A DNA stretch of 64,000 nucleotides, taken from contig JAFQAU010000264.1 in the NCBI GenBank assembly GCA_017399885.1, positions 6,411 to 70,410 on the forward strand. Reading direction: 5' to 3'. Under the pieces are notes generated by a model that was not told the origin of the DNA, did no database searches, and was given only the letters and a program-made list of their open reading frames with translations. Below, piece after piece: positions 23,375-64,000 of this stretch; the stretch's first letter is position 1, and every line of letters begins with the position of its first letter. Made by a program: the position numbers and the translations under genes. The DNA comes from Lachnospiraceae bacterium. GTDB lineage: Bacteria; Bacillota; Clostridia; Lachnospirales; Lachnospiraceae.

Positions 23375-23388
23375 GGCGAATTCCTCTT

Positions 23389-23475: not shown

Positions 23476-23495
23476 GCGGAACAGTTACCTTTATG

Positions 23496-28273: not shown

Positions 28274-28383
28274 AATAATACCATTCCTTCCTTCTCTTTT
28301 CTATTATCTTTTTTGATGAATTATGAAACTTTTCATAGATATATTTTCACCATATATCTTTTTTCTCCTCCTTTCTCCGAAAC

Positions 28384-28470
28384 ATTATACCCCATTCCCT
28401 TTTCAAAATCTTTGAATCCATGGGGATAATTTTTGTCGATTTTTGTCGGTTTTTGTCGATTTCTTTCCAA
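28384..28470 (-). promoter_or_regulatory. TGTCG-box promoter cassette E1
   Basis: Boxes TGTCGA, TGTCGG and TGTCGA at 28434, 28444 and 28454. Conserved AAAATCTTTGAATCCATGGGGAT. Minus-strand TATAAT at 28389-28384. Confidence 0.6.
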
Positions 28471-31437: not shown

Positions 31438-31518
31438 AATATACCTCGTTCTCTTTTACAAATCTTTGAATCCATGGTTGTCAATTAGTGTGGGTTTTTG
31501 TCGGTTTCTTTCCAAAAG
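31438..31518 (-). promoter_or_regulatory. TGTCG-box promoter cassette E2 (degenerate)
   Basis: CAAATCTTTGAATCCATGG, then TGTCA, TGTGG and TGTCG at 31479, 31489 and 31499. Minus-strand TATATT at 31443-31438. Confidence 0.5.
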
Positions 31519-32503: not shown

Positions 32504-32644
32504 TTCTTTTACCAGACCTTCCTAACATTTTATTCCAATGGTTCAAAATATGGATTCTTCCATATAATCATATGAACTACAACTATTCTTATCTTCCAAG
32601 TTCTCCTTTTGCAATACAGAAGGAACTCCATTTATCGACCAAAT

Positions 32645-32720
32645 AGTATACCCCAATTTCTTTCCAAAATCTTTGAATCCATGGGGATCATTTTTGTCGG
32701 TTTTTGTCGGTTTCTTTCCA
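32645..32720 (-). promoter_or_regulatory. TGTCG-box promoter cassette E3
   Basis: Boxes TGTCGG at 32695 and 32705. Minus-strand TATACT at 32650-32645. The cassette matches E4 over about 70 nt. Confidence 0.6.
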
Positions 32721-32834
32721 AAATTATATTTTTAATAGCAATTCAACCATGTCATTCGTATTTTTTCAGAATATACATTAAGACAAAAAAATATACATCC
32801 AGACTGGCAAAACACTTATGTCTAGCGTTAACCA

Positions 32835-33058
32835 GAACAAAGTGGACAAGTCCACTTCAACTCCCTAAATCCCTCATTCATGAGGGACTTGCTCCACTTT
32901 ATGTGCCAGATGCGTGTTGCATGCCTTTTGCAACAATGTTCCTTACGCATCTACTCTGTACGCTATTTTACTAAAACTCGTACCTCGTTAAGTAAAATAT
33001 GTGTGTGCAAATCCTCGCGGAGCTTTTTTGCTTTATAGGACGAAGTTTCCTATAAAAA
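32835..33058 (+). repeat. 225-bp four-hairpin repeat, copy 1
   Basis: Near-identical to 56053-56277. Internal stems: AAAGTGGACAAGTCC/GGACTTGCTCCACTTT, CCCTCAT/ATGAGGG, GATGCGT/ACGCATC, TTTTACT/AGTAAAA and CTTTATAGGA/TCCTATAAAG. Confidence 0.85.
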
Positions 33059-36272: not shown

Positions 36273-36413
36273 TTTTTACTTCCTCTCTTTACTTCCATAT
36301 TTTCTAGTGTAGTTTCATATCTTCTACATATTCACCATGTTTATTCTGAACTTATATAGGAAATCACCTATATAAGTTCAGAATAAAATATCACAACTCC
36401 TTTGTTGGATAAT

Positions 36414-36842
36414 TTAATTTGTATCTACATCAAATTGTCCTGAAATTTTACAATCCAAGGCTGGATCGTTTCCCATTGCCCTAAAATTAATACAAACTCC
36501 TGGTCTTCGATATTCGCTTTTTAATTTGTATACACTATTCTTATCTTTTCTTAGAGTAACTTCATTCTTATTATCCAAAACATTGGAACCATTACTTCTA
36601 AATCTTGCTTTTATTTTTTTATAATTTGATTCGCTTCCATCTGCTTTATAGATATCATATAAGTCGACTGCTATTGAACTTTTATCAGTTGCTTTTGAAC
36701 AAGATGCTATTTTTGTAAATTCATTACTGTCAACATATGCATACTGAAATTGCGTTGCAACTGCATCTACACTTACACTTCCTGCTATTGATGTAATTAT
36801 TACTGCTCCGACCATTATTTTTTTTAATTTGTTATTAAACAT
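36414..36842 (-). CDS. Small secreted protein of unknown function; first gene of the cassette-driven operon
   Basis: Start trimmed to MFNNKLKKIMVGAVIITSIAGSVSVDA (signal peptide). Mature part about 115 aa with two Cys pairs possible. Confidence 0.6.
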   Translation of the reverse strand: MFNNKLKKIMVGAVIITSIAGSVSVDAVATQFQYAYVDSNEFTKIASCSKATDKSSIAVDLYDIYKADGSESNYKKIKARFRSNGSNVLDNKNEVTLRKDKNSVYKLKSEYRRPGVCINFRAMGNDPALDCKISGQFDVDTN

Positions 36843-37033
36843 ATTTAGTTTCCTTTCTTTTACACATTGTATCACATTTATAGGTGTATGGCAAAACATC
36901 AGAAATTTTATTTTGCTCCTATGTTACTCTACTACTTTAAAATCCTATATTCTCATCTTTTACACTTTTCATTAATATTAAAAAATAATAGACATGTAGA
37001 GTTTTTCTTCACTCCTCCTCTCTCCGTTTGCAC

Positions 37034-37222
37034 AGTATACTACAATTTCTTTCCAAAATCTTTGAATCCATGGGGATCATTTTTGTCGGTTTTTGTCGGT
37101 TTTTGTCGGTTTCTTTCCAAAATCTTTGAATCCATGGGGATCATTTTTGTCGGTTTTTGTCGGTTTCTTTCCAAAATCTTTGAATTTTTGGGGATCTGTT
37201 TTGTCGGTTTCTTTCCAAAAAT
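37034..37222 (-). promoter_or_regulatory. TGTCG-box promoter cassette E4, tandemly triplicated (six boxes)
   Basis: The unit TTTCCAAAATCTTTGAATCCATGGGGATCA(TTTTTGTCGG)n repeats three times. Boxes at 37084, 37094, 37104, 37148, 37158 and 37202. Minus-strand TATACT at 37039-37034. Confidence 0.65.
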
Positions 37223-41148: not shown

Positions 41149-41772
41149 ATGCGAATAATTATTGTAGATGATGACAATTTAGTTTCTCTTTCTTTAAAAA
41201 CCATATTAGAAGCCAGTGGTGAAATAGAGGTTTTAGATATAGGACGGAATGGAGAGGAAGCTATTGTCCTGTTTGAAAAATATAAACCTGATGTTTTGCT
41301 TATGGATATTCGGATGACTACTATGAGTGGACTAGAAGCTGCAAAAGAAATTCTTTCCAAGCACCCACAAGGAAAGATCTTATTTCTTACCACCTTTTCT
41401 GACGACGAATACATCATTCAGGCACTTTCCTTAGGTGCAAAGGGGTATATTTTAAAACAAGACTTTGATAGTATTCTCCCTGCCTTAAAAGCAGTGTATA
41501 GCGGACAGAATGTTTATGGTAGCAACATTGTAGAAAAGCTCCCTACACTCATGCAGAATCCTACACGCAAGTTTGATTATGAAAAACATGGAATCACTCC
41601 TAAGGAAATGGAGCTTATTGTCCTTGTATCCAAAGGACTTAACAATAAAGAAATCTCAGAGCAGCTGTATTTAAGCGAAGGAACCATCAGAAATTATTTA
41701 AGTTCCATTTTGGAAAAGCTACAGCTTAGAGACCGTACCCAATTGGCAATATTCTATCTAAATAATACTTAG
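41149..41772 (+). CDS. NarL/LuxR-family response regulator
   Basis: Start trimmed to MRIIIVDDD. C-terminal HTH LSEGTIRNYLSSILEKLQLRDRTQLA. Confidence 0.9.
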   Translation: MRIIIVDDDNLVSLSLKTILEASGEIEVLDIGRNGEEAIVLFEKYKPDVLLMDIRMTTMSGLEAAKEILSKHPQGKILFLTTFSDDEYIIQALSLGAKGYILKQDFDSILPALKAVYSGQNVYGSNIVEKLPTLMQNPTRKFDYEKHGITPKEMELIVLVSKGLNNKEISEQLYLSEGTIRNYLSSILEKLQLRDRTQLAIFYLNNT

Positions 41773-41828
41773 AACAAGGTGGACAAGTCCTCTTCAACTC
41801 CCTAAATCCCTCATTCAGGAAGGACTTG
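41772..41828 (+). repeat. Partial copy (first hairpin) of the 225-bp repeat
   Basis: GAACAAGGTGGACAAGTCCTCTTCAACTCCCTAAATCCCTCATTCAGGAAGGACTTGC. Confidence 0.7.
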
Positions 41829-41950
41829 CATTGAGTTAGGTATATCTTTGCATTTACCGGGCTGACTGTAGGAAAGAATATATCATGAATAGATTGGGGC
41901 AATCAACCATGTGATTGCCCCTGTGGAAACAGCTATTTCATTTCTGTATT

Positions 41951-48403: not shown

Positions 48404-48479
48404 TGTATTTTATCCTGTTTTTGCTCCGTGTTATATAGACCTTAAATATAGCAGTTTAGCCTTCTTTCCGGCCAAACTG

Positions 48480-49178
48480 CTATTTCGATTTAATAACATA
48501 CCCTACGCCACGAACCGTTTCTATCATATGTACTCCATAAACCTCATCAATTTTTGATCGAAGATATCGAATGTATACATCTACTACATTGGTTTCCCCC
48601 ACATAATTAAAACCACATACCCGTTCTAATAAAGTATCTCTTGAGAGTACTATGTCCTTATTTTCCAATAAAGTTTGTAGCATCATAAATTCCCGATTAG
48701 TAAGAATAATTTCCTCTCCTGCATAGGTAACCTGATGCTTTTGGGGAGAAAGTACAAGTTCCCCCCAAACAAGCACCCCTTCTTGTGTAGTATCTATATT
48801 TTTAACCGCAGCGTGACTTCGTAACTTTAATGCCACACGAATTCGAGCCAAAAGTTCTTCTATTGCAAAGGGCTTTGTAATATAATCCACTGCCCCTGCA
48901 TCCAAACCTGCTACCTTATCCATAACTGCATCTCTTGCAGTTAGAAGAATAACCGGTGTCGGTTTTGTCTGTTGCAATCGACGTAATACTTCTAAACCAT
49001 TTAACTTTGGAAGCATAATATCCAGTAAAATCAAAGAAAAATCTCTACCTGTGGCAAGCTCTAGTGCATCTCTTCCATTATCTGTTCGGGTTACCTCGTA
49101 TCCTTCATGCTGTAATTCTAATTCAATAAATCTTGCTAATCCTTCATCATCTTCTACTACCAGAATATTCGACTCCAT
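48480..49178 (-). CDS. OmpR-family response regulator
   Basis: ILVVEDDEG, LLDIMLP, VRGVGYVIK. Confidence 0.9.
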   Translation of the reverse strand: MESNILVVEDDEGLARFIELELQHEGYEVTRTDNGRDALELATGRDFSLILLDIMLPKLNGLEVLRRLQQTKPTPVILLTARDAVMDKVAGLDAGAVDYITKPFAIEELLARIRVALKLRSHAAVKNIDTTQEGVLVWGELVLSPQKHQVTYAGEEIILTNREFMMLQTLLENKDIVLSRDTLLERVCGFNYVGETNVVDVYIRYLRSKIDEVYGVHMIETVRGVGYVIKSK

Positions 49179-50070: not shown

Positions 50071-50102
50071 AAAAACAGTTCAGCAATTTGCTGAACTGTT
50101 TT
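50071..50102 (-). terminator. Rho-independent terminator built on the AACAGTTCAGC motif
   Basis: AACAGTTCAGCAA/TTGCTGAACTGTT stem, with T7 on the transcribed strand. Confidence 0.8.
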
Positions 50103-51773: not shown

Positions 51774-51924
51774 TCACTTAGCCAATCGGCTAACCGGTTA
51801 CATTAAAAGTCCATCTGGCTAACCTGGCCCGATGGACTTTTAACGAATGAACTACAATATATTGTCATACATAGACAAACATCCAAGTGACTGCCCCTAT
51901 CTAAACTGTTACAAGCATATAATT

Positions 51925-52977
51925 TTACGAAAGTATTCGTTCCATGCTTTCTCTATTCATAGCATATAACAGAGCAGTTTCTTTTTTTATTTTACCTGAT
52001 TGATATAATTCCATTATACTACTATCCATTGACAGCATACCCTCTTCTTTGGCAGTAGCAATGGTAGATGGTATTTGGTGAACTTTTCCATCTCGTATTA
52101 ATGTTCTTATGGCATTGTTCGCTTTTAATATTTCAAATGCGGGCACCTGTCTTCCATCTGTGGTTGGTAGCAATTGCTGAGATACTACTGAGCGTAACAC
52201 CATAGAAAGCTGTATTCGGATCTGTTGTTGTTGCTGTGGCGGAAATACATCTATAATTCTATCTATCGTATTAGCCGCTCCCACTGTATGTAGAGTAGAC
52301 AACACTAAATGACCTGTTTCCGCAGCCGTCATAGCAATTTCAATCGTCTCCAAATCTCGCATTTCCCCGATTAAAATTACATCCGGTGATTCCCGCATTC
52401 CAGCTTTTAATGCACGATTATAATCTTTACTGTCGATTCCAATCTCCCTTTGACTTACGATACTTTTATTATGTGTATGCAGAAATTCTATAGGATCTTC
52501 CAATGTTAGAATATGACAATTCCTACTCTTATTAATCTCATCTATTATATATGCCAATGTGGTACTTTTTCCACTCCCTGCGGAACCTGTTACCAATACC
52601 AATCCCTTTTTTCGTTCACTTAGCTCTAATACCGATTTGGGAATTCCCATTGTTGACACATCCTGTAGTTGAAAATTTACAACACGAAGTACGGCACTCC
52701 ATGAACCACGTTGCCTAAATACATTTACACGAAATCTTCCTACACAGGCTAGGGATACCGAAAAATCATCATCTCCTTGTTCCCCATATTTCCTATCCCG
52801 ATTCCCCATTTCATACAAATGCTCTACCATAGAAAATAACTGGTCCGGCTTTAATGGGCTCTCTCCCTGTTTCTCTATGTTTCCATTTATCTTATAAGAA
52901 ACCGGCTGTCCTGCAATTAAAAATATATCCGATGCTTTTTTTTGCACTGCCATAGTTAATATATCTTCCATTGTCAT
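51925..52977 (-). CDS. pilT: Type IV pilus retraction ATPase PilT
   Basis: GSAGSGKST, GEMRDLETIEIAMTAAETGHLVLSTLHT, AIRTLIRDGKVHQI. Confidence 0.85.
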   Translation of the reverse strand: MTMEDILTMAVQKKASDIFLIAGQPVSYKINGNIEKQGESPLKPDQLFSMVEHLYEMGNRDRKYGEQGDDDFSVSLACVGRFRVNVFRQRGSWSAVLRVVNFQLQDVSTMGIPKSVLELSERKKGLVLVTGSAGSGKSTTLAYIIDEINKSRNCHILTLEDPIEFLHTHNKSIVSQREIGIDSKDYNRALKAGMRESPDVILIGEMRDLETIEIAMTAAETGHLVLSTLHTVGAANTIDRIIDVFPPQQQQQIRIQLSMVLRSVVSQQLLPTTDGRQVPAFEILKANNAIRTLIRDGKVHQIPSTIATAKEEGMLSMDSSIMELYQSGKIKKETALLYAMNRESMERILS

Positions 52978-53002
52978 ATTCCTTCACCCGCCTTTTTGTT
53001 CT

Positions 53003-53560
53003 TTACTCTGTAATCACAACACCATCCCATAGTTCTGTTCCTTCTTCCAGTTCCAATACCAAATTAGAATCTTTTACCATCTTCCACTTTGCAATCTGCA
53101 AGGTACGATTATTATACAATTCTAATTCTACCTCCAAACGACTGCCTTCTTTTATAAAGATATCATAGGAAATGGTTCCTATTTGCAATGGTTTATTTTC
53201 TCCATTTTCATTTTCCACATAGGTACTATTCTCTTTTATTTGCACTTTTACATTCTCTAAATCTGTTATTCCTTCATATCTACCAGCTTGCAAGCCTACT
53301 AAACATTCTTCTAATTTTTCCAGATCTGTCTCTTCCACAAACGCCCCCATTAAACAACGAGTATACTCTGCCTTTGCATCTGCATCATAATACTCTACAA
53401 CAGATTCCCCTGTTTTTTTCGCCAACTTCCACTCATTTACAGAAGCACGCACAGACAGTAATCCAAAAACAGATAGTACCAATGCGAGAAATATCAATAT
53501 CATGGAAGAAATTCCAACATTTAAAACCAAGCCTTTCCCTTCTTTCATGCCAGATACCAA
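53003..53560 (-). CDS. Membrane-anchored protein of the pilus-like operon
   Basis: One N-terminal hydrophobic helix. No canonical prepilin motif. Confidence 0.45.
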   Translation of the reverse strand: MVSGMKEGKGLVLNVGISSMILIFLALVLSVFGLLSVRASVNEWKLAKKTGESVVEYYDADAKAEYTRCLMGAFVEETDLEKLEECLVGLQAGRYEGITDLENVKVQIKENSTYVENENGENKPLQIGTISYDIFIKEGSRLEVELELYNNRTLQIAKWKMVKDSNLVLELEEGTELWDGVVITE

Positions 53561-53572
53561 TCCTTTCTACTA

Positions 53573-54100
53573 CTATTTTACAACCTTTAATTGGAATAAC
53601 TCTATATTATCTTCTTTAAATAACATAGATGGATAACCATGCAATCGATATACACATATTTGATAGTTTTCTAAGGTTTTTCCTTGCATCTCTTGTGAAA
53701 AAGGAATCAAAATCATGCAATAGGTATCTTCCTTAGAAACACTTTGCCACTTATTATCATAATGTAGCACATATACCTTTTCTTTTGCTGCCTCCCCATT
53801 TTTTTCACCTAAATTGGTTACTTGATAGGTTCCATCCTCTTGCATACCTATGCTTGCAGGTATTTCTAATAGCTCTAATTCTTCTACAGCTTCTTCAAAA
53901 TTTTCTGCTGATTTTATTGTTTCTGCAATGGTTTCTGAAAGCATAATTGCCTTTCCTTTGTCCTCTGCTTTACTTTGCATAGTATTGGCAGCCAAAAATA
54001 ATTCTAATAAAAAAACACTTATTATCCCAAATATTCCTATATTGACAATTAATTCGAGCATAGGCATTTTTGCAGACCCAGACTGTTTTTTTCTTTTCAT
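53573..54100 (-). CDS. Pilin-like protein (non-canonical N-terminus)
   Basis: SAKMPMLELIVNIGIFGIISVF resembles a class III signal with Glu at +5, but it lacks the Gly. Confidence 0.4.
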   Translation of the reverse strand: MKRKKQSGSAKMPMLELIVNIGIFGIISVFLLELFLAANTMQSKAEDKGKAIMLSETIAETIKSAENFEEAVEELELLEIPASIGMQEDGTYQVTNLGEKNGEAAKEKVYVLHYDNKWQSVSKEDTYCMILIPFSQEMQGKTLENYQICVYRLHGYPSMLFKEDNIELFQLKVVK

Positions 54101-54154
54101 AACATATTCTCCATTCTACATACTGTAACAATTTATCCAGTGGCTAATCTGTTA

Positions 54155-54634
54155 CTACATACTTCTAAGAAACATGGTTAGGCTTTGGCTTTCTTCTCCA
54201 TCAAAAGACGTAAACTTTAATTTATCATCACTTACTTGTTCTATCCCAAACGCATTTAACTCCATAACCTCTAATCCATCTGCCAGCTTGTATTCCATGC
54301 TCTCTTCCTGAAACAATTCCCTAAGCTTCCCTTCATAACAATATATCATAGTACGGTAAGTTCCACTTTTCAGATTTTCCTTCAATACTAAAATAGGAAT
54401 TCCCTCCTGTTCTATTACTGAAATACAATCCTTTTGGTCACACTGTCTTACCTTGGTTGCTACATAGGACAAAGAAGCTCGCAGATGAAAATTTTCTCCA
54501 TTATTCTCCACTATATTTTTATATACATGTACACCTATGTTTATTAAAACTAAGGAGCCAATTACAAAAGTACAAAGAATAGCTAACACACATGCATAAG
54601 ATATTACCCAGCTACTTTTTTCTCTTTTCTTCAC
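54155..54634 (-). CDS. Membrane-anchored protein of the pilus-like operon
   Basis: One N-terminal TM. 159 aa. Confidence 0.45.
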   Translation of the reverse strand: MKKREKSSWVISYACVLAILCTFVIGSLVLINIGVHVYKNIVENNGENFHLRASLSYVATKVRQCDQKDCISVIEQEGIPILVLKENLKSGTYRTMIYCYEGKLRELFQEESMEYKLADGLEVMELNAFGIEQVSDDKLKFTSFDGEESQSLTMFLRSM

Positions 54635-54645
54635 CCTGCCATCTC

Positions 54646-54972
54646 CTATTCTCTTTCAAATACGTCTACATTAGGCATTATATTTGAAGCAAAAATTTCG
54701 TAATCGATAAAATACTTCTCATGGTTGTATTCTAAGCCATAATATTCCTCTAGATATTCTATATTTGGTGGGTACTCTCCTTCTATGGCATAGCACTGCA
54801 CCACAGCTTTTCTTGTTGCTTGACGAAGTAAATCAATTTGCTGCATATTACTCATATGTTCAAATGAAACCCACCCAACAACAAACGTTGCAACCATGAC
54901 ACAAAAAACGGTTATGGGAAAAATTATTTCTTTTTTCCATTTGCTCTGCTTTTTCTTTTTTAGATTTTTCAA
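54646..54972 (-). CDS. Membrane-anchored protein of the pilus-like operon
   Basis: One N-terminal TM. 108 aa. Confidence 0.45.
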   Translation of the reverse strand: MKNLKKKKQSKWKKEIIFPITVFCVMVATFVVGWVSFEHMSNMQQIDLLRQATRKAVVQCYAIEGEYPPNIEYLEEYYGLEYNHEKYFIDYEIFASNIMPNVDVFERE

Positions 54973-54983
54973 AAAAACGCCCC

Positions 54984-56030
54984 CTAGCCTATTGCAGATA
55001 TAATACTTATCAACGGGAACATAATCGACAATAAAACACAGCCTATAATAAGTGAGAGACTAATTACTAAAGTAATTTCCAGCTTATTGCACATATGCGT
55101 CAACTGTTCACTGATACTTTCATCATATTGGCTACTGATATCCCCTAATACATCTTCAAGCATACCTGACTTTGCTGCCAGACTCACAATTCTTCCTTGC
55201 ATACCGGTTATCAGCTTTTCTTCCTTCATTGCCTCTGCTAAAGATTTATTGTCTTTTACCAACTGTCTGCATTGTTTTATATTTTCTTTTATCTGTGGAT
55301 GGTGATTGGCTTCCTGTGCCAACTCTAATGCTTCCTCCTGGTCCATTCCACTTGATATCATTACAGACATAGAAGAAATAAATTTTCCCACAGCTAGTAA
55401 ATGGGATGTTTTTTTGGTAACAAAAAAATTACAACTAAATTTATTTAATATTTCTTCTCCTTTTTTTGTTCTATACCATAAGATTAAACCAATCCCCACA
55501 ACTAAGACAACAAGAGAAACAATCGCTACTATCTTTCCTGCCCATACTCCAAAATTCATAAATTTCGTGCTAGACGATGCTACATCCACACTTAAATTCT
55601 CAAATACCCTTTGAAACATTGGCAGAATCTTTCCCACCAAAACCAGTAATATTATTGCAATCATAGCAAACATAAGCATGGGGTAAGCAATCACATTTCT
55701 TATACTATCTTTCATGTCTGCTTCCCTTTGATAATAGTATGCCATGGAATTCATTACTGTCTCTAATTTTCCTGTATGTTCCCCTATATTTACCATACTA
55801 AGCAAATAACCAGGAAATGCATTTGTTTCCTTCATAGCATTATGAAAGCTCTCATTTTGCTTTAATTTATCTTCTATACATAACAGCACATGCTTTGTTT
55901 TCTTATCTTCTACTTCCTCTTTTAATATGTAAATGCCATCATATAAAGAAATCCCACTTTTTAATATAATTGCTATTTGATTACAAAAACCAGCCAATTC
56001 TTCTGAACTAAACCTGTTTTGCCCTTTCAT
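54984..56030 (-). CDS. GspF/PilC-family platform protein
   Basis: Start trimmed to MKGQNRF (ATG 56030, GGAGGG RBS). Duplicated helical domain plus TM segments. The ORF-track extension to 56168 lies inside a repeat. Confidence 0.65.
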   Translation of the reverse strand: MKGQNRFSSEELAGFCNQIAIILKSGISLYDGIYILKEEVEDKKTKHVLLCIEDKLKQNESFHNAMKETNAFPGYLLSMVNIGEHTGKLETVMNSMAYYYQREADMKDSIRNVIAYPMLMFAMIAIILLVLVGKILPMFQRVFENLSVDVASSSTKFMNFGVWAGKIVAIVSLVVLVVGIGLILWYRTKKGEEILNKFSCNFFVTKKTSHLLAVGKFISSMSVMISSGMDQEEALELAQEANHHPQIKENIKQCRQLVKDNKSLAEAMKEEKLITGMQGRIVSLAAKSGMLEDVLGDISSQYDESISEQLTHMCNKLEITLVISLSLIIGCVLLSIMFPLISIISAIG

Positions 56031-56052
56031 AACATCCCTCCATCTTTTCCTA

Positions 56053-56277
56053 GAACAAAGTGGACAAGTCCACTTCAACTCCCTAAATCCCTCATTCATG
56101 AGGGACTTGCTCCACTTTGCGTGCCAGATGCGTGTTGCATGCCTTTTGCAACAATGCTCCTTACGCATCTACTCTGTACGCTATTTTACTAAAACTCGTA
56201 CCTCGTTAAGTAAAATATGTGTGTGCACATCCCCGGGTCGCGTTTTTGCTTTATAGGACGAACTTTCCTATAAAGTA
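56053..56277 (+). repeat. 225-bp four-hairpin repeat, copy 2
   Basis: Near-identical to 32835-33058, same orientation. Confidence 0.85.
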
Positions 56278-56433
56278 AAGCAAGAAAAGTTCCCTATTTC
56301 TCTATTTTACACAAGAGAAATAAGGAACTTTCCAGTAACAGTTAGATTGGACCTGTGCACATCCTCACGAAGCATTTTATGCTTTGTAGAACGAACTTCC
56401 TATAAGTAAAAAAACCATTCAACTGATTACATC

Positions 56434-58887
56434 CTATAACTCTACTTTTATTTTCTCCAAATGCCAGATATCTTTTGCGTATTCTTCTATTGTTCTATCC
56501 GAAGAGAATTTACCACATTTTGCTGTATTTAATATGGCAGATTTCGCCCAACCTGCTTCATCTCTATATGCTTTCTCCACTTTTTTCTGTGCTGCTTCGT
56601 AGGAACGGAAATCTTTTAGGATAAAGTACTGGTCTGCCCTTTCTCCACCATTCTTCTCTAATAAAGAGTTATATATCTCACGGAATAACTCCGGATTGTC
56701 CTTAGAATAAAATCCATTAATCAACTGGGTTAATACCGTACGTATATCCTGATCGATATTATATATATCCTTTGGATTATATTGGTTATTGTGCTCATAT
56801 GCAATTACCTCATCTGAGCTTAATCCAAAGATAAATGCATGCTCTTCTCCAACCTCTTCCACAATCTCTACGTTAGCTCCGTCCATGGTTCCAAGGGTTA
56901 ATGCTCCATTTAACATAAATTTCATATTACCTGTACCGGAAGCTTCCTTACTTGCAGTAGAAATCTGCTCTGAAACATCTGCTGCTGCAAATATCCATTC
57001 TGCATTGGATACTCTGTAATCTTCTATAAATACTACCTTGATCTTTCCATCAATAGATGTATCATTATTAATCACGTCTCCAACGCTGTTTATTAACTTA
57101 ATAATTGCTTTCGCTCTACGATAACCAGCAGATGCCTTTGCACCAAAAATAAATGTTCTTGGATAGAAATCCATAGAAGGATTCTTCTTTAACTCATTGT
57201 ATATATGCATTATATGCAGAATATTCAATAACTGACGCTTATATTCATGAAGTCTCTTAACCTGTACATCGAAAATAGAACGCGGATCTACTTCAATACC
57301 ATTATGGTCTTTAATGTATTTTGCTAAACGTACCTTGTTCTGGTACTTAATCTGCATAAACTCTCTCTGACATTTTTCATCATCTGCATAAATAGCCAAT
57401 TTATCAATATGTGACAAATCGGTAATCCAATCAGAACCAATCTTACTGGTTACCCAGTCTGCTAATAGTGGGTTACCATGTAACAGGAATCTTCTTTGTG
57501 TAATACCATTGGTCTTATTATTGAACTTTTCTGGCATCATCTGATAGAAGTCTTTTAATTCCTGATTCTTAAGAATCTCTGTATGCAATCTTGCTACACC
57601 ATTTACGGAGAAGCTTGCAGCAATTGCAAGATGAGCCATCTTTACCTGCCCATCATATATGATTGCCATCTTCTTTACTTTCTCATAATCATTTGGATAC
57701 ACTTCTTGTATCTTCATAATAAATCTCTTATTGATTTCTTCCACAATTTGATAAATACGAGGAAGTAATCTTGAGAACAATTCTAATGGCCATTTCTCAA
57801 GAGCCTCCGACATAATGGTGTGGTTGGTATAAGCACATGTCTTGTTAGTTACCTCCCATGCTTCATCCCATTCTAAACCATACTCATCTAATAATATCCT
57901 CATGAACTCTGCTACTGTAACTGTTGGATGGGTATCATTCAACTGGAAGCATACTTTTTCATGAATATTACGAATATCATCATGGGTCTGCATATATTTC
58001 GTAACAGCTCTTTGAATACTTGCTGATACAAAGAAATACTGCTGCTTTAAGCGTAGCTCTTTACCGGCATAGTGATTATCATTTGGATACAGTACTTCAC
58101 AAATAGTTCTGGCAAGATTCTGCTGCTCTACCGCTTTTTGATAATCTCCTTTATCAAAGGAATCTAAGCTAAAGGTATCTATAGCCTCTGCATCCCAAAT
58201 ACGCAACGTATTTACCATGTTATTGTTGTAGCCTACAATTGGCAAATCGTACGGTATGGCTCTTACAGACTGGTAATTCTCCTGTACATATTTCTCTTTT
58301 CCATTCTCGTCTCTATAAACGGCTACATGCCCGCCAAATTTAACCTCTACTGCATATTCAGCTCTCTTCATTTCAAATGGATTGCCATGCTTTAACCAAT
58401 CATCCGGTGTTTCTATCTGGAATCCATTTTCAATCTTCTGTTTGAACATTCCATACTTGTAACGAATACCACAACCATACGCAGGATACCCCAAAGTTGC
58501 CAACGAATCTAAGAAACACGCAGCAAGTCTTCCAAGACCACCATTTCCAAGTGCTGCATCCGGTTCCTGATCCTCAATTACATCTAAATCTAAACCTAAC
58601 TCTTCTATGGCCTCTTTAATCGCCTGATTTCCTTTTAAATTAATAATGATGTTCCCTAAAGCTCTCCCCATTAAGAATTCCATGGATAAATAATATACAA
58701 TCTTTTTATCTTCCTTCTCAAACTGTTTGTGGGAAGCCATCCACTGATCCACTACAATATCCTTTGCAGCATAAGCTACAGCTTGAAATAATTGTTGCTG
58801 ATCTGCTTCCTCCACAGAACGTCTGAATAATACCTTTAGATTATCTACCACATTTTGTTTAAATTCTTCTTTACTTATTTCTGCCAT
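56434..58887 (-). CDS. glgP: Glycogen/maltodextrin phosphorylase
   Basis: EASGTGNMKFMLNG PLP-lysine motif. Start trimmed to MAEISKEEF after a GGAGGGG RBS. Confidence 0.95.
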   Translation of the reverse strand: MAEISKEEFKQNVVDNLKVLFRRSVEEADQQQLFQAVAYAAKDIVVDQWMASHKQFEKEDKKIVYYLSMEFLMGRALGNIIINLKGNQAIKEAIEELGLDLDVIEDQEPDAALGNGGLGRLAACFLDSLATLGYPAYGCGIRYKYGMFKQKIENGFQIETPDDWLKHGNPFEMKRAEYAVEVKFGGHVAVYRDENGKEKYVQENYQSVRAIPYDLPIVGYNNNMVNTLRIWDAEAIDTFSLDSFDKGDYQKAVEQQNLARTICEVLYPNDNHYAGKELRLKQQYFFVSASIQRAVTKYMQTHDDIRNIHEKVCFQLNDTHPTVTVAEFMRILLDEYGLEWDEAWEVTNKTCAYTNHTIMSEALEKWPLELFSRLLPRIYQIVEEINKRFIMKIQEVYPNDYEKVKKMAIIYDGQVKMAHLAIAASFSVNGVARLHTEILKNQELKDFYQMMPEKFNNKTNGITQRRFLLHGNPLLADWVTSKIGSDWITDLSHIDKLAIYADDEKCQREFMQIKYQNKVRLAKYIKDHNGIEVDPRSIFDVQVKRLHEYKRQLLNILHIMHIYNELKKNPSMDFYPRTFIFGAKASAGYRRAKAIIKLINSVGDVINNDTSIDGKIKVVFIEDYRVSNAEWIFAAADVSEQISTASKEASGTGNMKFMLNGALTLGTMDGANVEIVEEVGEEHAFIFGLSSDEVIAYEHNNQYNPKDIYNIDQDIRTVLTQLINGFYSKDNPELFREIYNSLLEKNGGERADQYFILKDFRSYEAAQKKVEKAYRDEAGWAKSAILNTAKCGKFSSDRTIEEYAKDIWHLEKIKVEL

Positions 58888-58963
58888 TACAAAACCCCTC
58901 CATATTGTCCCTTTCCATATATTATATTTTTTACCCAATTATTCCATTTTATAAACAATTGGA

Positions 58964-59596
58964 TTATTTTTTTCTGTTTAGCATCTGATTTTTCATAACA
59001 TATCTTGCTAATTCCTCACTCGGCTGTCCCAATGCACAACCATATACATATTCTTTGCGATTCTCATCTACTAATTGTATACGAACCACATGCCCACACA
59101 ATCGCATAAATTTACCTTCTGTAACCTCTAGTCTTACCTCTATACGTTTGTTCATTTCCAGCTCTTCATTGCTAACTACAGCAAATCCACCTTCACTAAC
59201 ATCCTTTAGTACCATCTTAATCGCTCTGGCCCCTTCCGCAAATGTAACAGAAGCCAGTGTCTCTTTACCAATAAACAAACGATATGCTCCTCTACGATTA
59301 ATATGCTCCGCATTGGTATCGCTCAATGTAACCTTATAATACACTTCCTGTTTTAAAGTAACCTTCTCAATCTTCACATCTGACCAAACATATAGTTTGC
59401 TTTGTTGCATATAGAAAAGATTCGCTATCATTTCCTGAGAAAATTGCGCAAAAGAACCATCTGCTTCTAAAATCTTCTCTACCAAAACGATATTATTCTT
59501 AATTGCCACTATTTTTGTGTCGTATTTTCTTACTTCACCACCCAAATAATACTCCAGCTTTACGGGTGTATTTCCTTTTAATTCACTTATATTCAT
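58964..59596 (-). CDS. PilZ-domain (c-di-GMP-binding) protein, YcgR-like
   Basis: RRGAYRL (RxxxR) and KDVSEGGFAV (DxSxxG). Confidence 0.8.
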   Translation of the reverse strand: MNISELKGNTPVKLEYYLGGEVRKYDTKIVAIKNNIVLVEKILEADGSFAQFSQEMIANLFYMQQSKLYVWSDVKIEKVTLKQEVYYKVTLSDTNAEHINRRGAYRLFIGKETLASVTFAEGARAIKMVLKDVSEGGFAVVSNEELEMNKRIEVRLEVTEGKFMRLCGHVVRIQLVDENRKEYVYGCALGQPSEELARYVMKNQMLNRKK

Positions 59597-60100
59597 ATAG
59601 CATCCCTCATTCTCTCTTAATGGCGAATAAAAGTTCTAATGCATCCTTGCTTTCCTTTCTTGTAGGTAACCCCGTAATAAAACTTTTCAAGTAACATTAT
59701 ATACTTTTTTTACAATCATTACAAGCTTTTTCATGCGTTTTGCACAAAGATTTCATTATATCTTTATAATTATTACATAGTTTTTAACAAATTATTGTAT
59801 TTTTATTAACTTTCCTAAAGTAGATTGTATGGAAGTAGATTATTTTTTCTATACCCATCACTTTTTAATCCATTTCATCCCTATCAAAGAAAAAACACAC
59901 TTTCTCCACAGCACAAATGCTATAAAAATAATGCGTTCTTCTTAAAAATATTCTGTTTTGATTTCAGATGTCCTTATATGGAGGCATAAAGAATGACAAT
60001 ATCCCTCATTTCCATTAAACACGGTATCTCGAATCTCATGAAAGTTTTTTGTTTCTATATCACACCGTAGCCCGTAATACATACCTTGTACACCCTCAGC

Positions 60101-60131
60101 GTAACAGTTAAGCCGCAAGGCTAAACTGTTA
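60101..60131. repeat. GTAACAGTT-family hairpin
   Basis: GTAACAGTTAAGCCGCAAGGCTAAACTGTTAC, almost the reverse complement of 63018-63049. Confidence 0.8.
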
Positions 60132-60241
60132 CAAATATGCCAAACCACAGCTTGCAACCGTTGCTATTGCGCTAACTGCAACTAGAGCACCGCTGACCGT
60201 TTGCATAAAGCCTTCGTAAAGCGGACATTCGGAATCCGCTT

Positions 60242-60335
60242 CGCTACTTCCTCATGAACGCAGATTGCTTCGCAATACATCAGATGGGGCTTTTTTTCCC
60301 CATCTGATACGAGCATCCCCTTGTCCTCACTTAAT
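60242..60335 (+). repeat. ATCAGATG-hairpin element, copy 2
   Basis: See 23389-23475. Confidence 0.8.
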
Positions 60336-60345
60336 ACTACTCATT

Positions 60346-61143
60346 TTAAGATTGGGGATTGCTCGTTCTGCGTTCAAATCTTTTTTCACTTTCCAGTTCT
60401 TCATAGATTTCCCGGCTAATCTGGTTTTGATGCTCTATTGCTTCCTGTATACCGGTTGCATTTACTTGGTTATATACCTGGGATTTTTCCAATGCTTCAT
60501 ACAGATCTAAAAAATGGGCTTTCTCATTCAAGACTCGCTTGCGAGTCTTGGCGTGGAATTCGGGTCAGCTTTTGCTGACAAAGTTCTTATCCGAATTCCT
60601 GCGCATCCTTGCGTGGAGTATATCAGACGGGAGTCCCTCCCGTCTGATATACTCCCCTGTTTGATAGCGTTCTATATGACGGTCATGGTTCTTATAATCC
60701 TGAATCAGATTTTTTGTTGCAAATATTAACTTTTCTAATTCAGAGATTTCATTGTTGCAAAAATCTGCATCCAACATAGCAATCATATCCTCTTTTTTGT
60801 TGATGTAACTTTTTACATCATCGAAGCTTTCCGCTAAGCTGGTGGTATCAATAAGCTCTAAGTCTATAATATCCTGCACACTTTTTAGGCTCGCATTCAC
60901 TTCATCTATCACACTATCTAAGTCAAAAAATACCATGTTCATGTGATTCTTTGGCTCATCCATACCTGCTTGTGGTATGCGAGCTGTTGGAGAAGCATCA
61001 ACTTCTGATACAAACAATTCTGCATATAAATTAATCTTATTGAAAAAGTCACTTTCAACTGTAATCATAGAGCTTATAAGAATGGGATAAACTTGTCCAA
61101 AATAGTTTTTTATACTCTCTGCTGCAATTCCCACTACCTCCAA
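60346..61143 (-). pseudogene. LXG-domain toxin gene fragment, 5-prime truncated and interrupted by a palindromic insertion
   Basis: GIAAESIKNYFGQVYPILISSMITVESDFFNKINLYAELF aligns with GKAAINIKDYFQEVHQTILSSIRMILDDFYSKINLYANQF of 30297-31355. Homology resumes after the insertion (AHFLDLYEAL...IQEAIEHQ). Confidence 0.7.
60529..60655. repeat. About 125-bp triple-palindrome insertion inside the LXG fragment
   Basis: CAAGACTCGCTTGCGAGTCTTG (60529-60550), GGAATTCGG...CCGAATTCC (60555-60599) and GGAGTATATCAGACGGGAGTCCCTCCCGTCTGATATACTCC (60615-60655). Confidence 0.75.
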
Positions 61144-61705
61144 TAAAAACTCGTATCATTACTGTAACAAGTAACATTCCTACCATAGGCAATAATGCTA
61201 AAAATAAATTTGTATTATTTTTTTGAGGTTTTGCCAAAGGATTTTTAATGGAGATTCCTTCCGTAGATAATACCGTCTGTATTCTGGTATTCCTTATAAA
61301 TACCGGATAAGTACTATTATCCGCTTCTTTGTCCTTATTTACAGCTTCTTTATCTACAAGTTTTAACAACATTCCATTCTGTAATCCTTGCTCCCAAAGA
61401 CTTTTACTTCCTTCAAAACACAGATATGGTCTTTCGCACAATGATAATTTAACAATTTCTTCTTTTAAATACCAAAATATCTCTTTTAAATCCCTATTTT
61501 GTCTAAATAAATATTCTAATGCTATTTCTTTTGATATTTCATCATATTTTTCGTATTTGATCGAACCTTCTGTATAATACTCTATCAATCCAGTACGTTT
61601 CCATCTTGAATTATCTCCGAAAACATATTCATAATTTTTTCTCCCACAAGACTTAACAATTACATCCATATTTTCCTCATCTAATAAACGCATATATTTT
61701 TCCAT
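61055..61705 (-). CDS. Hypothetical protein (candidate immunity protein); its 3-prime end is fused out of frame into the LXG fragment
   Basis: Good RBS (AGGAGA). Soluble N-terminal domain plus one TM. The last 25 or so codons overlap the LXG-homologous DNA in another frame. Confidence 0.45.
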   Translation of the reverse strand: MEKYMRLLDEENMDVIVKSCGRKNYEYVFGDNSRWKRTGLIEYYTEGSIKYEKYDEISKEIALEYLFRQNRDLKEIFWYLKEEIVKLSLCERPYLCFEGSKSLWEQGLQNGMLLKLVDKEAVNKDKEADNSTYPVFIRNTRIQTVLSTEGISIKNPLAKPQKNNTNLFLALLPMVGMLLVTVMIRVFIGGSGNCSREYKKLFWTSLSHSYKLYDYS

Positions 61706-61707
61706 AT

Positions 61708-62202
61708 CTATCTCCTATAATTTTGTATCAGATTAATATTCTTTGGAACTTTAATATTTTCTGAAAGCTCAAACATTTTATCTTCAATTTTAAAATATTC
61801 TTCTGTATCTCACATGAAAACTCTTGCCTGTTCGTACAACCCATGCATTTCCGAACTATTCTTCAATGCAAAGCTTTCTGGTGTATGAAATTGAAGCTCA
61901 AATATCTGACCTTCTGGTGATTTTACTTGTGCATTGATTCCATTATAAGGATTTGTTTCATCAATCCATGTATTCTTTAGCTTAATAACTTTATATCCTC
62001 TAGATTCTAAGTCTGATATTGTTTTTTTTGTTGTTTCTACTAAATTCTCTGGTTCCTGTATTTCTGTATATCGTACAATATCATGAATCTCTAATATAGG
62101 CGTTGATTTAGGTCTTAAATAAACTTTCTCAAATACTGATGAAGGACTCTTTATTCTGTATTCAAGCCCATCTAAATAGCCTCCATTTTTTATTACTATA
62201 AT
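61708..62202 (-). pseudogene. Orphan toxin C-terminal-module fragment with no start codon and an in-frame stop
   Basis: My translation is NGGYLDGLEYRIKSP...GQIFELQFHTPESFALKNSSEMHGLYEQARVFM, then a stop at 61810-61812, then DTEEYFKIEDKMFEL. No ATG/GTG/TTG near the 5-prime end. Confidence 0.45.
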
Positions 62203-62432
62203 TCATCTTCATATGGCAATCGTACCATATTTACAAAACGGTCTTCAATTGCACCCAGTAATTTATAATTTTTTTTTGCTGTATTTAAAGAAACTTTATT
62301 CGGTCCTATAATTTTATCAGGCTTATCTTGAGCATCTTCATCATATTGCCAAAAACAAACCTCACAAACATCTGTAATAACTTCACAACAATCTTCAATT
62401 GTTAAACATCCACAACATGGACATCTCTTCAT
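62196..62432 (-). CDS. Cysteine-rich CPCC-family protein (immunity-type)
   Basis: MKRCPCCGCLTIEDCCEVITDVCEVCFWQYD matches the CPCC family signature. Confidence 0.7.
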   Translation of the reverse strand: MKRCPCCGCLTIEDCCEVITDVCEVCFWQYDEDAQDKPDKIIGPNKVSLNTAKKNYKLLGAIEDRFVNMVRLPYEDEL

Positions 62433-62454
62433 AATGATTCACACTCCTTAACAT

Positions 62455-62988
62455 TTATTTTGGTGCATACTTTTCTATTTGTTCTAACCAATAATCCATT
62501 TTATCATCTGGTTTAAAATATGTTGATATTCCACCATATTCATTTATTATACCAAACTCATTAGTCGCTGTATCGTATCTAAAATATGTTCCTTCATTAG
62601 ATACAAAAGATTGTGTAGTTGAGGTTGGATTCTTCTCCAAAAAGTTTCTTGCATCTTTTAAGTATTCTTCTGGAGATGTATATCCATGCTTGCCTGCATG
62701 CTTATTTAATGTACTTTTACCTTTACCATTTACAAAATCTACATCTGCCTTTCTTGTTCCTTTATATAATTGACATCCAAAGTTACTACCACTCTCACCA
62801 ATACTTTTACCATACACCGTCTCATTCTTCGGCACATCATCCAAATCTCTAACCTTTATCCTCTGTCCATCTGGCGTTATATACTCATACGAATACAGCT
62901 CTCCATTTTTGATTTTTCTGACTGTGTCTTTCGCTTCTCCAATATATTTGTTTATATTTATCTTTTCATCTATCCATACTTTTTGCAA
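62455..62988 (-). CDS. Candidate polymorphic-toxin C-terminal domain (class not recognised), detached from its LXG carrier
   Basis: TTG start only. The frame stays open upstream into the repeat element. Basic and Gly-rich with KHAGKHGY. Followed 22 bp later by the CPCC gene. Confidence 0.45.
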   Translation of the reverse strand: MQKVWIDEKININKYIGEAKDTVRKIKNGELYSYEYITPDGQRIKVRDLDDVPKNETVYGKSIGESGSNFGCQLYKGTRKADVDFVNGKGKSTLNKHAGKHGYTSPEEYLKDARNFLEKNPTSTTQSFVSNEGTYFRYDTATNEFGIINEYGGISTYFKPDDKMDYWLEQIEKYAPK

Positions 62989-63017
62989 ATATACTTTATA
63001 TTTCGCTGTATTCTTAG

Positions 63018-63165
63018 GTAACAGTTCAACCTTGCGGCTTAACTGTTACGTTGTAAGTCCATATAAAATCGGGCAAAATCAGCCCGATGGACTTACAACC
63101 TATATAATGTACTGTATTGGTACGTGGACAATCAACAGGGTGATTGCCCCTGGCTGAATAGTTAC
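63018..63165 (+). repeat. 148-bp three-hairpin composite element, copy A
   Basis: GTAACAGTT hairpin, then GTTGTAAGTCCAT...ATGGACTTACAAC, then GCAATCA...TGATTGCCCCTGG. Near-identical to 63841-63988. Confidence 0.85.
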
Positions 63166-63840
63166 ACTCTTAGTTACAAGATTACCTACCTTTATGATAG
63201 TCCCATGAATTTCTGAACCTACTTTTATAAACTTTTTTCCAAATTTTGTTACCATTTTCCCAGTGACTACAGGAATAAACATACAGACTACTGAAATTTT
63301 TTGTTCCATTTTGCTCAGTTTTTCTCCTGTCACCAAGTCTACTCCGGTTATAGCTTCTTGTACATCTTTTATATCTCCTACTACCGGTACGGTGCTTATC
63401 CCTACGGATGCCGCACCTTCCATGGCTTCTTCTGTTTGTTGGGATTTTAAAAGAGCTCTTTCCAGTTTTTCACTAAGCTCCCATTGTTTCTGGATTGCTT
63501 CTTCTATCTCTTTTCCATTCTCGTCATAATACTTTTCACAAATTTCTTTCATGTCTTTTAAGTGCAGGTAAGCTTGTGTATGAAAGTAGCTTCCTGTTTC
63601 GTAATCCGTTATATTACGCTTTTCCGACTGTTGGGATTTGATATAATTTCTGGTATCTCTAATTAATCCATCTAAAGCTTCTACCTCATTCTCACAAAAA
63701 TCAGAATCCAGTTGCGCTATCTTCCATTCCATTTCTGTCAAATCTTCGATTCTTTTCTCATAGTCCATTCGTATGGCATCTGTGAATAAAGGCTGTATTT
63801 CCACTATATCCTCTATAGATCGTAAATCTGCATTAATATC
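63166..63840 (-). pseudogene. Internal LXG/PT-TG fragment (equivalent to residues about 125-347 of 30297-31355)
   Basis: DINADLRSIEDIVEIQ is identical in both copies. PT-TG motif PVVGDIKDVQEAITGVDLVTGEKL. Roughly 85 percent DNA identity by eye. Both ends abut the 148-bp element. Confidence 0.75.
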
Positions 63841-63988
63841 ACAACTGTTCAGCCTCGCGACTGAACAGTTGCGTTGTAAGTCCATATAAAATCGGGCAAA
63901 ATCAGCCCGATGGACTTACAACCTATATAATGTACTGTATTGGTACGTGGGCAATCAGCGAGGTGATTGCCCCTGGATGAACAGTTAC
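63841..63988 (+). repeat. 148-bp three-hairpin composite element, copy B
   Basis: Direct repeat of copy A at an 823-bp offset. Confidence 0.85.
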
Positions 63989-64000
63989 TTAATGGCTTTT

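Follow-up and report, generated by a model that had tools for sequence, protein, structure and literature searches.

Introduction

Loci in which LXG toxin genes are followed by immunity genes and accompanied by orphan modules are known from Streptococcus intermedius (the Tel toxins), Bacillus subtilis, Listeria and group B Streptococcus (PMC9900821, PMC8321402, PMC10327511). In other Firmicutes, LXG genes often lie away from the T7SS (type VII secretion system) locus (PMC9900821). T7SSg and T7SSh loci, which are FHA-less, are reported to be adjoined by Tad genes (Garrett, Higginson & Palmer 2024, PMC11217815). Here, we describe a 64,000-nt stretch of DNA (the window) from the metagenome-assembled genome (MAG) of an uncultured Lachnospiraceae bacterium, whose part at 60.1-64.0 kb is most probably the downstream half of a degenerate T7SS/LXG effector island. 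A sequence-only reading of the same DNA had proposed a decayed LXG polymorphic-toxin array with a CPCC gene and without working type VII machinery in the window, and this description holds.

Orphan CdiA-CT/CdiI and Rhs-CT arrays of Proteobacteria contain displaced toxin tips with their immunity genes, and short homologous 'handles' for tip replacement. Immunity genes of these arrays outlast the lost toxin.

Other contigs are named L001, L002 and so on, and homologous proteins P0081, P0117, P0140 and so on. The MAG has the locus-tag prefix II992 and protein accessions MBQ36018xx. Extended coordinates refer to the window plus the overhang of contig L001, which adds 3,498 nt past the window end.

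Layout of the island

The island extends ~3.5 kb beyond the window end on L001. Read on the minus strand, its order is LXG-0 with a toxin and an immunity gene, an orphan toxin/immunity cassette, LXG-B, a CPCC immunity gene, a RelA/SpoT-like toxin pseudogene (tox4), a truncated partner gene, a stump of essC, the LXG-C fragment and a scar from an ABC-transporter gene. A further LXG gene, LXG-A, was found at 30297-31355. All of the island genes and their insertions, LXG-A and the insertion sequence (IS) that cuts it are on the minus strand. The 11.8 kb at 52196-64000 were recovered from ENA metagenome assemblies of several samples, with identities of 100% (L001), 99.9% (L002) and 99.98% (L003). 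ENA samples with this locus include ERZ28019354, ERZ28653896 and ERZ28654059.

Pfam profiles confirmed the domain assignments of the sequence-only reading, for LXG (E 2.7e-22 in LXG-A and 3.8e-10 in LXG-C), PT-TG (1e-12 in LXG-A and 2.3e-14 in LXG-B) and CPCC (1.5e-24). As that reading had also stated, no LXG gene is intact in the window: LXG-B is split, LXG-A has no toxin and LXG-C is an internal fragment. None of the window LXG genes has LXG and a C-terminal toxin in a single uninterrupted open reading frame (ORF). The locus is a case of ordinary gene decay of a known kind, and no new system.

One LXG gene split by hairpin-rich insertions

Aligned to the extended sequence, the DNA of LXG-A was collinear with a second gene, LXG-B. 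It starts at L001:2880 (extended ~64624, ~620 nt past the window end), begins MDKHCFILDYEKIRLFREKS, and is interrupted by four small hairpin-rich insertions, each with an in-frame stop. Insertion 1 (L001 2936-3098) is 163 nt long and adds a net 153 nt, and insertion 2 (L001 3267-3358) is 92 nt long and adds a net 98 nt. Insertions 3 and 4, at 63841-63988 and 63018-63165, have 148 nt each and add 156 nt each, duplication included. They are copies a and b of one composite, MITE-like hairpin element (MITE, miniature inverted-repeat transposable element). Both bear a terminator-like hairpin in sense orientation, which in copy b is at 63088-63068.

The L001 extension and the segment map of LXG-A versus LXG-B place the last 12 nt of LXG-B segment 3 at 63989-64000. 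Next to them, copy a lies within the LXG domain. It has an in-frame stop, a terminator-like site at 63911-63891, a DNA fold z of -9.9 and the flanking 8-mers GCCATTAA/GATATTAA. Segment 4 (63166-63840) encodes the C-terminal part of the LXG domain and the PT-TG domain (Pfam match in 63100-63885), and it includes the left target duplication of copy b (63166-63173, CTAAGAGT). The in-window part of LXG-B scored 18.8 bits with the LXG profile (C-terminal part), under the cutoff of 26.5, because its N-terminal two-thirds lie beyond 64000. Copy b (fold z = -7.2) sits exactly at the junction of PT-TG and linker, with its right target duplication, CTAAGAAT, at 63010-63017.

Excision of copy b together with one 8-bp duplication (156 nt) joins ...GNLVTK to NTAKYKVYLQKVW / NTAKYKVYLQKVWIDEK in frame, and the uninterrupted paralogue LXG-0 shows the same junction, VSKNTAKYKVYLRKVWVDKK. 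Since the frame is restored and matches LXG-0, 63840-63166 and 62988-62455 are pieces of LXG-B, and the latter is its own C-terminus. This C-terminus (62455-63017) consists of a pre-toxin linker or 'handle' (62783-63016) and a colicin-D-like toxin domain (~62458-62785), with a 177-aa ORF within. The two pieces had been read as an internal LXG/PT-TG fragment and a detached toxin ORF. The PT-TG and toxin domains are real, but the first piece is LXG-B between the two 148-nt copies and no separate cassette, and the second is not detached.

LXG-B would thus once have been a complete gene for LXG, PT-TG, linker and a colicin-D-like tRNase toxin, with CPCC as its immunity gene, and the four hairpin-rich insertions would have silenced it. 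An insertion-free LXG-B allele was absent from every contig recovered.

Colicin-D-like toxin domain and CPCC gene

The toxin domain begins at about GESGSNF. It has 116 homologues, which form the C-terminal ends of PT-TG, RHS and PT-HINT proteins and in some cases bear the annotation 'pyocin large subunit-like'. No Pfam or NCBIfam family was found for the domain. By sequence, it matched PDB 8ey4_A with an E value of 2e-4. An AlphaFold model based on 45 homologues reached a pLDDT of 92, and with this model (62458-62811) Foldseek retrieved 8EY4, a contact-dependent inhibition toxin from E. coli O32:H37 (E 1.8e-6, target-normalised TM 0.78), and with weaker E values (6e-3 to 2e-2, probability 0.98-0.99) the colicin D tRNase (1v74_A, 5znm, 1tfk). 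A literature search for PDB 8EY4 gave no result. Among the 45 homologues H38 is invariant and H42 is kept in at least 90%; either is a candidate counterpart of the catalytic histidine of colicin D. Sequence and fold matches suggest that the LXG-B toxin was a colicin-D-like tRNase.

The intact 78-aa Cys_rich_CPCC gene (62196-62432) lies 22 nt past the LXG-B stop codon and has a Shine-Dalgarno-like aaggag upstream of its ATG. It scored 86 bits (cutoff 24.5) and covers positions 2-75 of the 75 of PF14206. The same arrangement recurs on four other metagenome or MAG contigs (at least one from the human gut): a CPCC gene of 78 aa, 76% identical to that of the window, comes directly after the gene of a PT-TG protein with this toxin domain. 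This conserved adjacency supports the CPCC protein as the candidate cognate immunity protein of the colicin-D-like toxin. The CPCC gene is probably the sole functional part of the island in the window, and it could shield the cell from the same toxin delivered by neighbours.

RelA/SpoT-like toxin pseudogene and its partner gene

Downstream of CPCC, tox4 (61708-62202) has no start, and its frame, GGYLDGLEYRIKSPSS...ELQFHTPESF...VFM*DTEEY..., is broken by a TGA at 61810-61812. The start-less toxin fragment with an internal stop seen in the sequence-only reading is therefore real. Its match to RelA_SpoT (PF04607) was under the cutoff of 27 bits (19.8 bits, E 1e-3, profile positions 2-98 of 113). 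It has 21 homologues, some of them named RelA/SpoT-domain proteins or (p)ppGpp synthases, and it is 65% identical to residues 102-237 of P0117, a protein that matches the C-terminus of XopAD-type effectors (1e-29). tox4 lacks ~100 N-terminal residues of its homologues and has its TGA where these read on; it is a dead orphan toxin tip.

It is followed by the first 88 codons of a truncated partner gene (61442-61705), a candidate immunity gene for the RelA/SpoT-like toxin, as revealed by contig L020. There, a toxin homologue is followed by a 210-aa gene, and residues 1-88 of ORF 61705-61055 align to the N-terminal ~88 residues of its product with 60% identity (E 7e-41). The homology ends at ...EEIVKLS.

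A stump of essC and the missing secretion machinery

Codons ~51-155 of an FHA-less EssC follow at 61130-61441, fused in frame to the truncated partner gene upstream. This essC 5' stump covers the last part of an N-terminal ubiquitin-like domain, then a linker and the first of the transmembrane helices, and it matched positions 2-58 of NCBIfam TIGR03928 (E 2.7e-6). At ~61135 the sequence switches, out of frame, from essC to LXG-C. From these alignments, the 216-aa ORF 61705-61055 is a chimera of partner-gene codons and essC codons in frame that then runs out of frame into LXG-C. The ORF reached the threshold of no Pfam family. It had been taken for a candidate immunity gene running into a third LXG fragment; the out-of-frame run was correct, but the identity of the gene was not.

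The true start of essC is kept in the allele on contig L005, which comes from one metagenome sample. Its first 80 residues form a ubiquitin-like beta-grasp fold (model pLDDT ~80-87), with a weak Pfam YukD match and Foldseek TM values of 0.74-0.80 normalised to ubiquitin targets. A HMMER search with this allele aligned 1,385-1,420-aa proteins from the first residue, and EssC proteins of ~1,500 aa at their first membrane segment. One of the relatives, P0140, scored 1,098 bits on TIGR03928 (cutoff 778) and was 41% identical to the window ORF (E 5e-28). Compared with window 62065-61442, L005 (755-1125) has most of tox4 and the partner remnant replaced by 364 nt. Within these 364 nt lie a 54-aa ORF, the intact 5' end of essC and a hairpin element that has a relative at L001 2675-2735. 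The 54-aa ORF had no Pfam or NCBIfam family, and it is not the tail of a relative's 876-aa gene, a candidate that we rejected. The essC-LXG-C fusion is common to both alleles. The simplest reading is that the window and L005 alleles arose by two different deletions from a longer ancestor. Separate deletions would have removed ~90% of essC, together with anything between essC and LXG-C, and would have joined codon ~51 of essC to one half of an immunity-type gene.

In a relative, the T7SS locus is intact and compact (L007 6962-19392, ENA contig k141_619627). Its products are a WXG100 protein, a Flg_new/beta-helix protein of 876 aa, an EssC of 1,385 aa whose N-terminus is ubiquitin-like and which has no FHA domains, a PASTA membrane protein and three small proteins that are helical, one of them weakly WXG100-like. 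Behind these come a lipoprotein and an Mbeg1-like lipase of 546 aa, whose long C-terminal extension is of unassigned fold. As the lipase gene lies downstream of essC and of the small helical genes, its product may be a substrate of reverse orientation. When the T7SS-neighbourhood proteins of this locus were searched against the window by tblastn, the sole match was EssC residues 1-161. The largest window ORF has 834 aa, and the three FtsK/SpoIIIE P-loop ATPase domains (~1,300-1,500 aa) of EssC are not present. From the stump-only match and the ORF sizes, the window contains a stump of a T7SS gene but no working one. The sequence-only reading had seen neither an essC nor an esxA-like gene: the first part fails on the stump, and the second agrees with the list of window small ORFs, on which no WXG100-like ORF was seen by reading, without a WXG100 scan by hidden Markov model. 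Given that LXG genes are often remote from the T7SS (PMC9900821) and that an essC remnant is present, the lack of T7SS genes is neither complete nor surprising.

We tentatively suggest, as a possibility that we hold to be less probable than its opposite, that the stump and its relatives P0140, P0141, P0156 and P0161 belong to a T7SS subtype that may be undescribed, in which a ubiquitin-like component of the YukD/EsaB type is fused to the N-terminus of an FHA-less EssC. Its gene set may be compact: WXG100, Flg_new/beta-helix surface protein, fused EssC, PASTA membrane protein, small helical proteins and a lipase-type effector. If so, the window records the loss of that system in one Lachnospiraceae lineage, with immunity genes kept.

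Tad/type IV pilus-like genes were observed at 51925-56168 (T2SSE ATPase, DUF4860, T2SSF), with glgP and a PilZ gene between them and the essC stump.

Two further LXG genes and their breakpoints

LXG-C (60346-61143) is an internal fragment of a divergent LXG gene and corresponds to LXG-A residues ~46-247, with 38% protein identity. It matched the LXG profile at 60565-61143 (40.4 bits, cutoff 26.5) and stops before any PT-TG or toxin domain. A 126-nt hairpin insertion at 60523-60648 (fold z = -12.9) brings an in-frame TGA at 60565-60567. LXG-C abuts a deletion scar (60235-60345) that duplicates an ABC-ATPase gene's 3' end together with its terminator and is paralogous to 23496-24389. The scar is 76% identical to 23382-23537 over 156 nt, and 89% over the 82-nt terminator.

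LXG-A (30297-31355) has LXG and PT-TG domains (LXG profile 80.1 bits, cutoff 26.5) and no toxin domain. It is cut after ...VTK(N), at gtaaccaaaaa, by an IS of the DDE_Tnp_1_4 type (28633-30309, Pfam 3.4e-16), whose transposase lies in two ORFs. The IS has 16-nt terminal inverted repeats, CCT(T/G)AATCCGTGAAAC, and no target duplication. An IS-free allele on contig L024 is 99.5% identical up to 30310; its 394-aa gene ends within the linker (..YEYTI*), directly followed by an immunity-like gene and another orphan cassette. As the L024 gene ends in the linker without a toxin, LXG-A lost its toxin before the IS arrived. Truncation by the IS, as first read, is thus correct for the cut, but the toxin was already gone. 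The window lacks the DNA that L024 has past the IS point, through later deletion or rearrangement. We considered whether tataaagt..., which flanks the IS on the right, continues LXG-A, and rejected this because L024 differs there.

Hairpin insertions and the MITE-like element

All LXG inserts are strings of strong hairpins, with DNA fold z from -4 to -13. The two 148-nt copies are 91% identical. With terminal inverted repeats (GTAACTGTTCA...TGAACAGTTAC), more than one copy and no transposase, the element qualifies as a MITE. Its 8-bp target duplications agree at 7/8 and 6/8 positions. Each of the other three inserts occurs once in the 67.5 kb examined, and none has clear target duplications. 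Transposition was preferred to an origin of the 148-nt repeats as cassette boundaries or recombination sites, because each copy has its own 8-bp target duplication and LXG-A reads straight through both sites. No Rfam match was found for the hairpin inserts, either in the window at the gathering threshold or in 59600-64000 at E <= 1. Known ribozymes and introns, self-splicing introns included, were dropped on that account.

Four of the five LXG insertions add a multiple of three nucleotides (153, 156, 156, 126) and the fifth adds 98, all with in-frame stops. Between the terminal hairpins at 63018-63050 and 63841-63873, paired compensatory substitutions (T-A to C-G, A-T to T-A) keep the stem. 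A solitary palindromic unit at 60097-60132 (no strand assigned) repeats the 148-nt element's last hairpin in inverted orientation, with 92-94% identity to 63018-63053. Long palindromes are abundant in the window, with 46 hairpins with stems of at least 10 bp versus 16-20 in shuffles (for example 15074-15113, 36339-36387, 48447-48483, 50075-50102, 51802-51843 and 56285-56331). Several belong to recurring types, such as AACAGTTCAGC..GCTGAACTGTT and AAGTCCATC..GATGGACTT. The 148-nt element is built from these types and so has the look of a REP/BIME-like mosaic.

Families of MITEs and composite palindromic repeats include REP/BIME, the pneumococcal BOX/RUP and the Neisseria Correia elements. Like these, the inserts described here are small (92-163 nt) and non-coding, with several strong hairpins. 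Further shared features are the terminal inverted repeats and the 8-bp target duplications of the 148-nt element, and the occurrence of its hairpin units on their own in intergenic regions. A sequence relationship to REP/BIME, BOX/RUP or Correia elements was not found, no comparison having been made, and no autonomous partner was identified.

The IS in LXG-A and the 148-nt element in LXG-B are two different mobile elements within the same 8 bp of two paralogues (30305-30315; 63010-63173), at the homologous VTK/N codons. At this shared insertion point, the identity of the paralogues rises from 82% to 94%. The shared site is either a ~1-2% coincidence or a hot spot of insertion or recombination.

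Neighbouring paralogues

Further units lie just outside the window. L001 1-2624 (extended 64876-67498) holds LXG-0 with an intact junction, a toxin with the shared H-x-GKHG motif and a 121-aa immunity gene. They are followed by a frameshifted 73+66-aa gene and then by a start-less orphan toxin (weak Tox-REase-3 match), whose immunity gene has 148 aa. No Pfam or NCBIfam family was found for the immunity genes beyond the window. Like CPCC, these intact genes could protect the cell.

The sequence-only reading had assigned ~85% DNA identity to three LXG segments. Only LXG-A and LXG-B match, with 80.6% over 671 nt, ungapped (LXG-A 30313-30983), and ~90% over 5' segments outside the window; LXG-C had no blastn match to the other copies. 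Nor are the three segments the recombination substrates they were thought to be, as the high identity (94%) is that of the 106-234-nt linker. LXG-0 and LXG-B share 93.6% over 234 nt of the pre-toxin linker, and 94.3% was found over 106 nt with the orphan cassette; the PT-TG region beside it is only 82% identical. By these identities, the linker is the truly homogenised stretch, the usual 'handle' of orphan toxin modules.

Alternative explanations

Several findings weigh against a dead island. The junction of PT-TG, linker and toxin in LXG-0 is intact, although the 5' end of the gene is lost at the contig end, and LXG-0 may be a live gene. On another contig of the same MAG, P0096 (II992_00055) is a PT-TG/linker/toxin fragment with an uninterrupted junction and a different toxin tip, so that the LXG-type paralogues of the genome number at least five. 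Elsewhere in the genome, there may be a complete T7SS. The recovered copies are 99.6-100% identical, too alike for a selection test on the immunity genes. A promoter scan was at chance level (20 sites versus 19.2 expected) and uninformative. In the strongest alternative, the island would serve a live system as a reservoir of silent cassettes: LXG-0 or another LXG gene would be expressed and exported by a T7SS elsewhere, and the window pieces, as orphan toxin/immunity modules, could recombine into it through the linker. The identity of the linker among LXG-0, the orphan cassette and LXG-B, compared with that of the upstream PT-TG, fits this idea, as do the uninterrupted LXG-0 with toxin and immunity gene, the uninterrupted P0096 and the presence of the same scaffold with other toxin domains in homologous proteins, e.g. 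P0081. Against it, only a destroyed essC is within reach, the linker is gone from the RelA/SpoT-like cassette, which also has a nonsense codon, LXG-A and LXG-C are without any toxin, and the contigs recovered showed deletions only and no recombinant alleles. We therefore consider a reservoir unlikely, and favour a degenerate island from whose parts inside the window no toxin could be produced or exported.

The remaining alternatives are far less probable. The 177-aa ORF (62988-62455) and CPCC are both open, adjacent (22-nt gap) and conserved in 11 contigs, and the pairing of toxin and CPCC is kept elsewhere, as would be expected of a stand-alone, secretion-independent intracellular pair of the toxin-antitoxin kind. 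This is very improbable, since the ORF has a TTG start without a Shine-Dalgarno sequence, since this start lies midway in the LXG linker, which runs on unbroken from the upstream PT-TG when the 148-nt insertion is taken out, and since in other lineages the toxin domain is always the C-terminus of a larger carrier (PT-TG, RHS or PT-HINT). It is even harder to believe that LXG-B is a switchable toxin gene whose insertions are reversible or removable, by excision or RNA processing. The addition of a multiple of three nucleotides by four of the five insertions and the compensatory changes that keep the hairpins of the two 148-nt copies would suit it; the 98-nt insertion shifts the frame, there is an in-frame stop in every insertion, self-splicing introns are among the Rfam families without a match, and no contig has LXG-B free of insertions. 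Least credible is a mis-joining or collapse of paralogues, by which the fragments would be assembly artefacts of one or two intact LXG genes. Contigs of several assemblies do break within the array, as is typical of repeats, but the same junctions, including both 148-nt insertions and the essC-LXG fusion, recur in at least three independent assemblies from different samples (99.9-100% over 11.8 kb), and the insertions are flanked by target-site duplications. This identical structure rules out an artefact for all practical purposes, including the one intact gene that the sequence-only reading had named as its possible undoing.

Other features of the window

A ~90-nt upstream cassette was observed before four minus-strand transcription units, at 28382-28470 (127-aa secreted protein), 31450-31501 (LXG-A, a degenerate copy), 32643-32731 (ABC ATPase gene) and 37032-37215 (36414-36899 operon, three tandem copies). 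It consists of two to three direct repeats, CCGACAAAAA, at a 10-bp period, then CCATGGATTCAAAGATTTTGGAAAG and a -10-like GGTATAnT, and by this make-up it looks like a common operator/promoter. A 236-nt intergenic repeat with 93% identity is present at 32821-33056 and 56039-56274, and its 60-nt core also at 41770-41829. Further features are a ParE toxin/Phd-YefM antitoxin pair at 18711-19297 (2.4e-13 and 2.2e-14), a 6S RNA at 1578-1756 on the minus strand (68.2 bits, gathering score 46.4) and, on the plus strand, a 334-aa ORF at 22370-23374. In the latter, three 42-nt tandem repeats (23195-23320) encode (K)SQLEQEQLEKQTF near the C-terminus; no Pfam or NCBIfam match was found.

Relatives were also sought in genome collections. 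Scans of GTDB genomes with the LXG-A and PilZ proteins found no relative, and scans of JGI metagenomes with the LXG-A protein and the 33-nt core of the 148-nt element gave no match.

Significance

The locus is a clear example of how a T7SS/LXG island breaks up, by insertions of small hairpin elements, by an IS, and by deletions that fuse unrelated genes. Reading such wrecks ORF by ORF leads to wrong labels: the 'immunity gene' was a partner remnant, an essC stump and an LXG fragment. Annotations need the same caution, as the 261-aa, 177-aa and 216-aa ORFs called in public assemblies are pieces of pseudogenes. CPCC is one more case of an immunity gene outliving its toxin and the secretion ATPase, which fits immunity being kept as a defence against neighbours. 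Two leads go past the ordinary, namely the EssC with a fused ubiquitin-like N-terminus, and the two mobile elements at the same 8 bp of the LXG/toxin junction.

Comparison with known systems

As in other Firmicute LXG loci, an N-terminal LXG domain is followed by a PT-TG pre-toxin region, a variable C-terminal toxin and an immunity gene immediately 3'. Start-less orphan C-terminal cassettes with a short conserved junction are shared too, and so is the presence of several paralogues per genome, not all beside T7SS genes. Unlike in those loci, every window copy is inactivated: LXG-B by insertions, LXG-A by toxin loss and the IS, and LXG-C by deletions that truncate it on either side. Adjacent Lap/WXG100 partner genes are lacking, and the neighbouring essC is cut to ~105 codons.

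The essC stump and its full-length relatives (~1385 aa) resemble the ATPases of T7SSg and T7SSh (PMC11217815) in having no N-terminal FHA domains, and Tad-like pilus genes lie 3-8 kb from the stump in the window. The ubiquitin-like TsxB of those systems is described as a separate protein, whereas here the ATPase itself starts with the ubiquitin-like fold. In the L007 locus, the accessory genes (Flg_new/beta-helix, PASTA) correspond neither to TsgL nor to TshG/TshM by their descriptions.

The predicted fold of the toxin domain is like those of colicin D (1V74, 5ZNM, 1TFK) and CdiA-CT O32:H37 (8EY4), with a sequence identity of just 16-30%, and its partner is a CPCC protein and not the ImmD of colicin D. 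Displaced tips with immunity genes and handles are present here as in the CdiA-CT and Rhs-CT arrays. In contrast to those arrays, the carrier protein and the secretion route are different ones, and the delivery gene itself has decayed.

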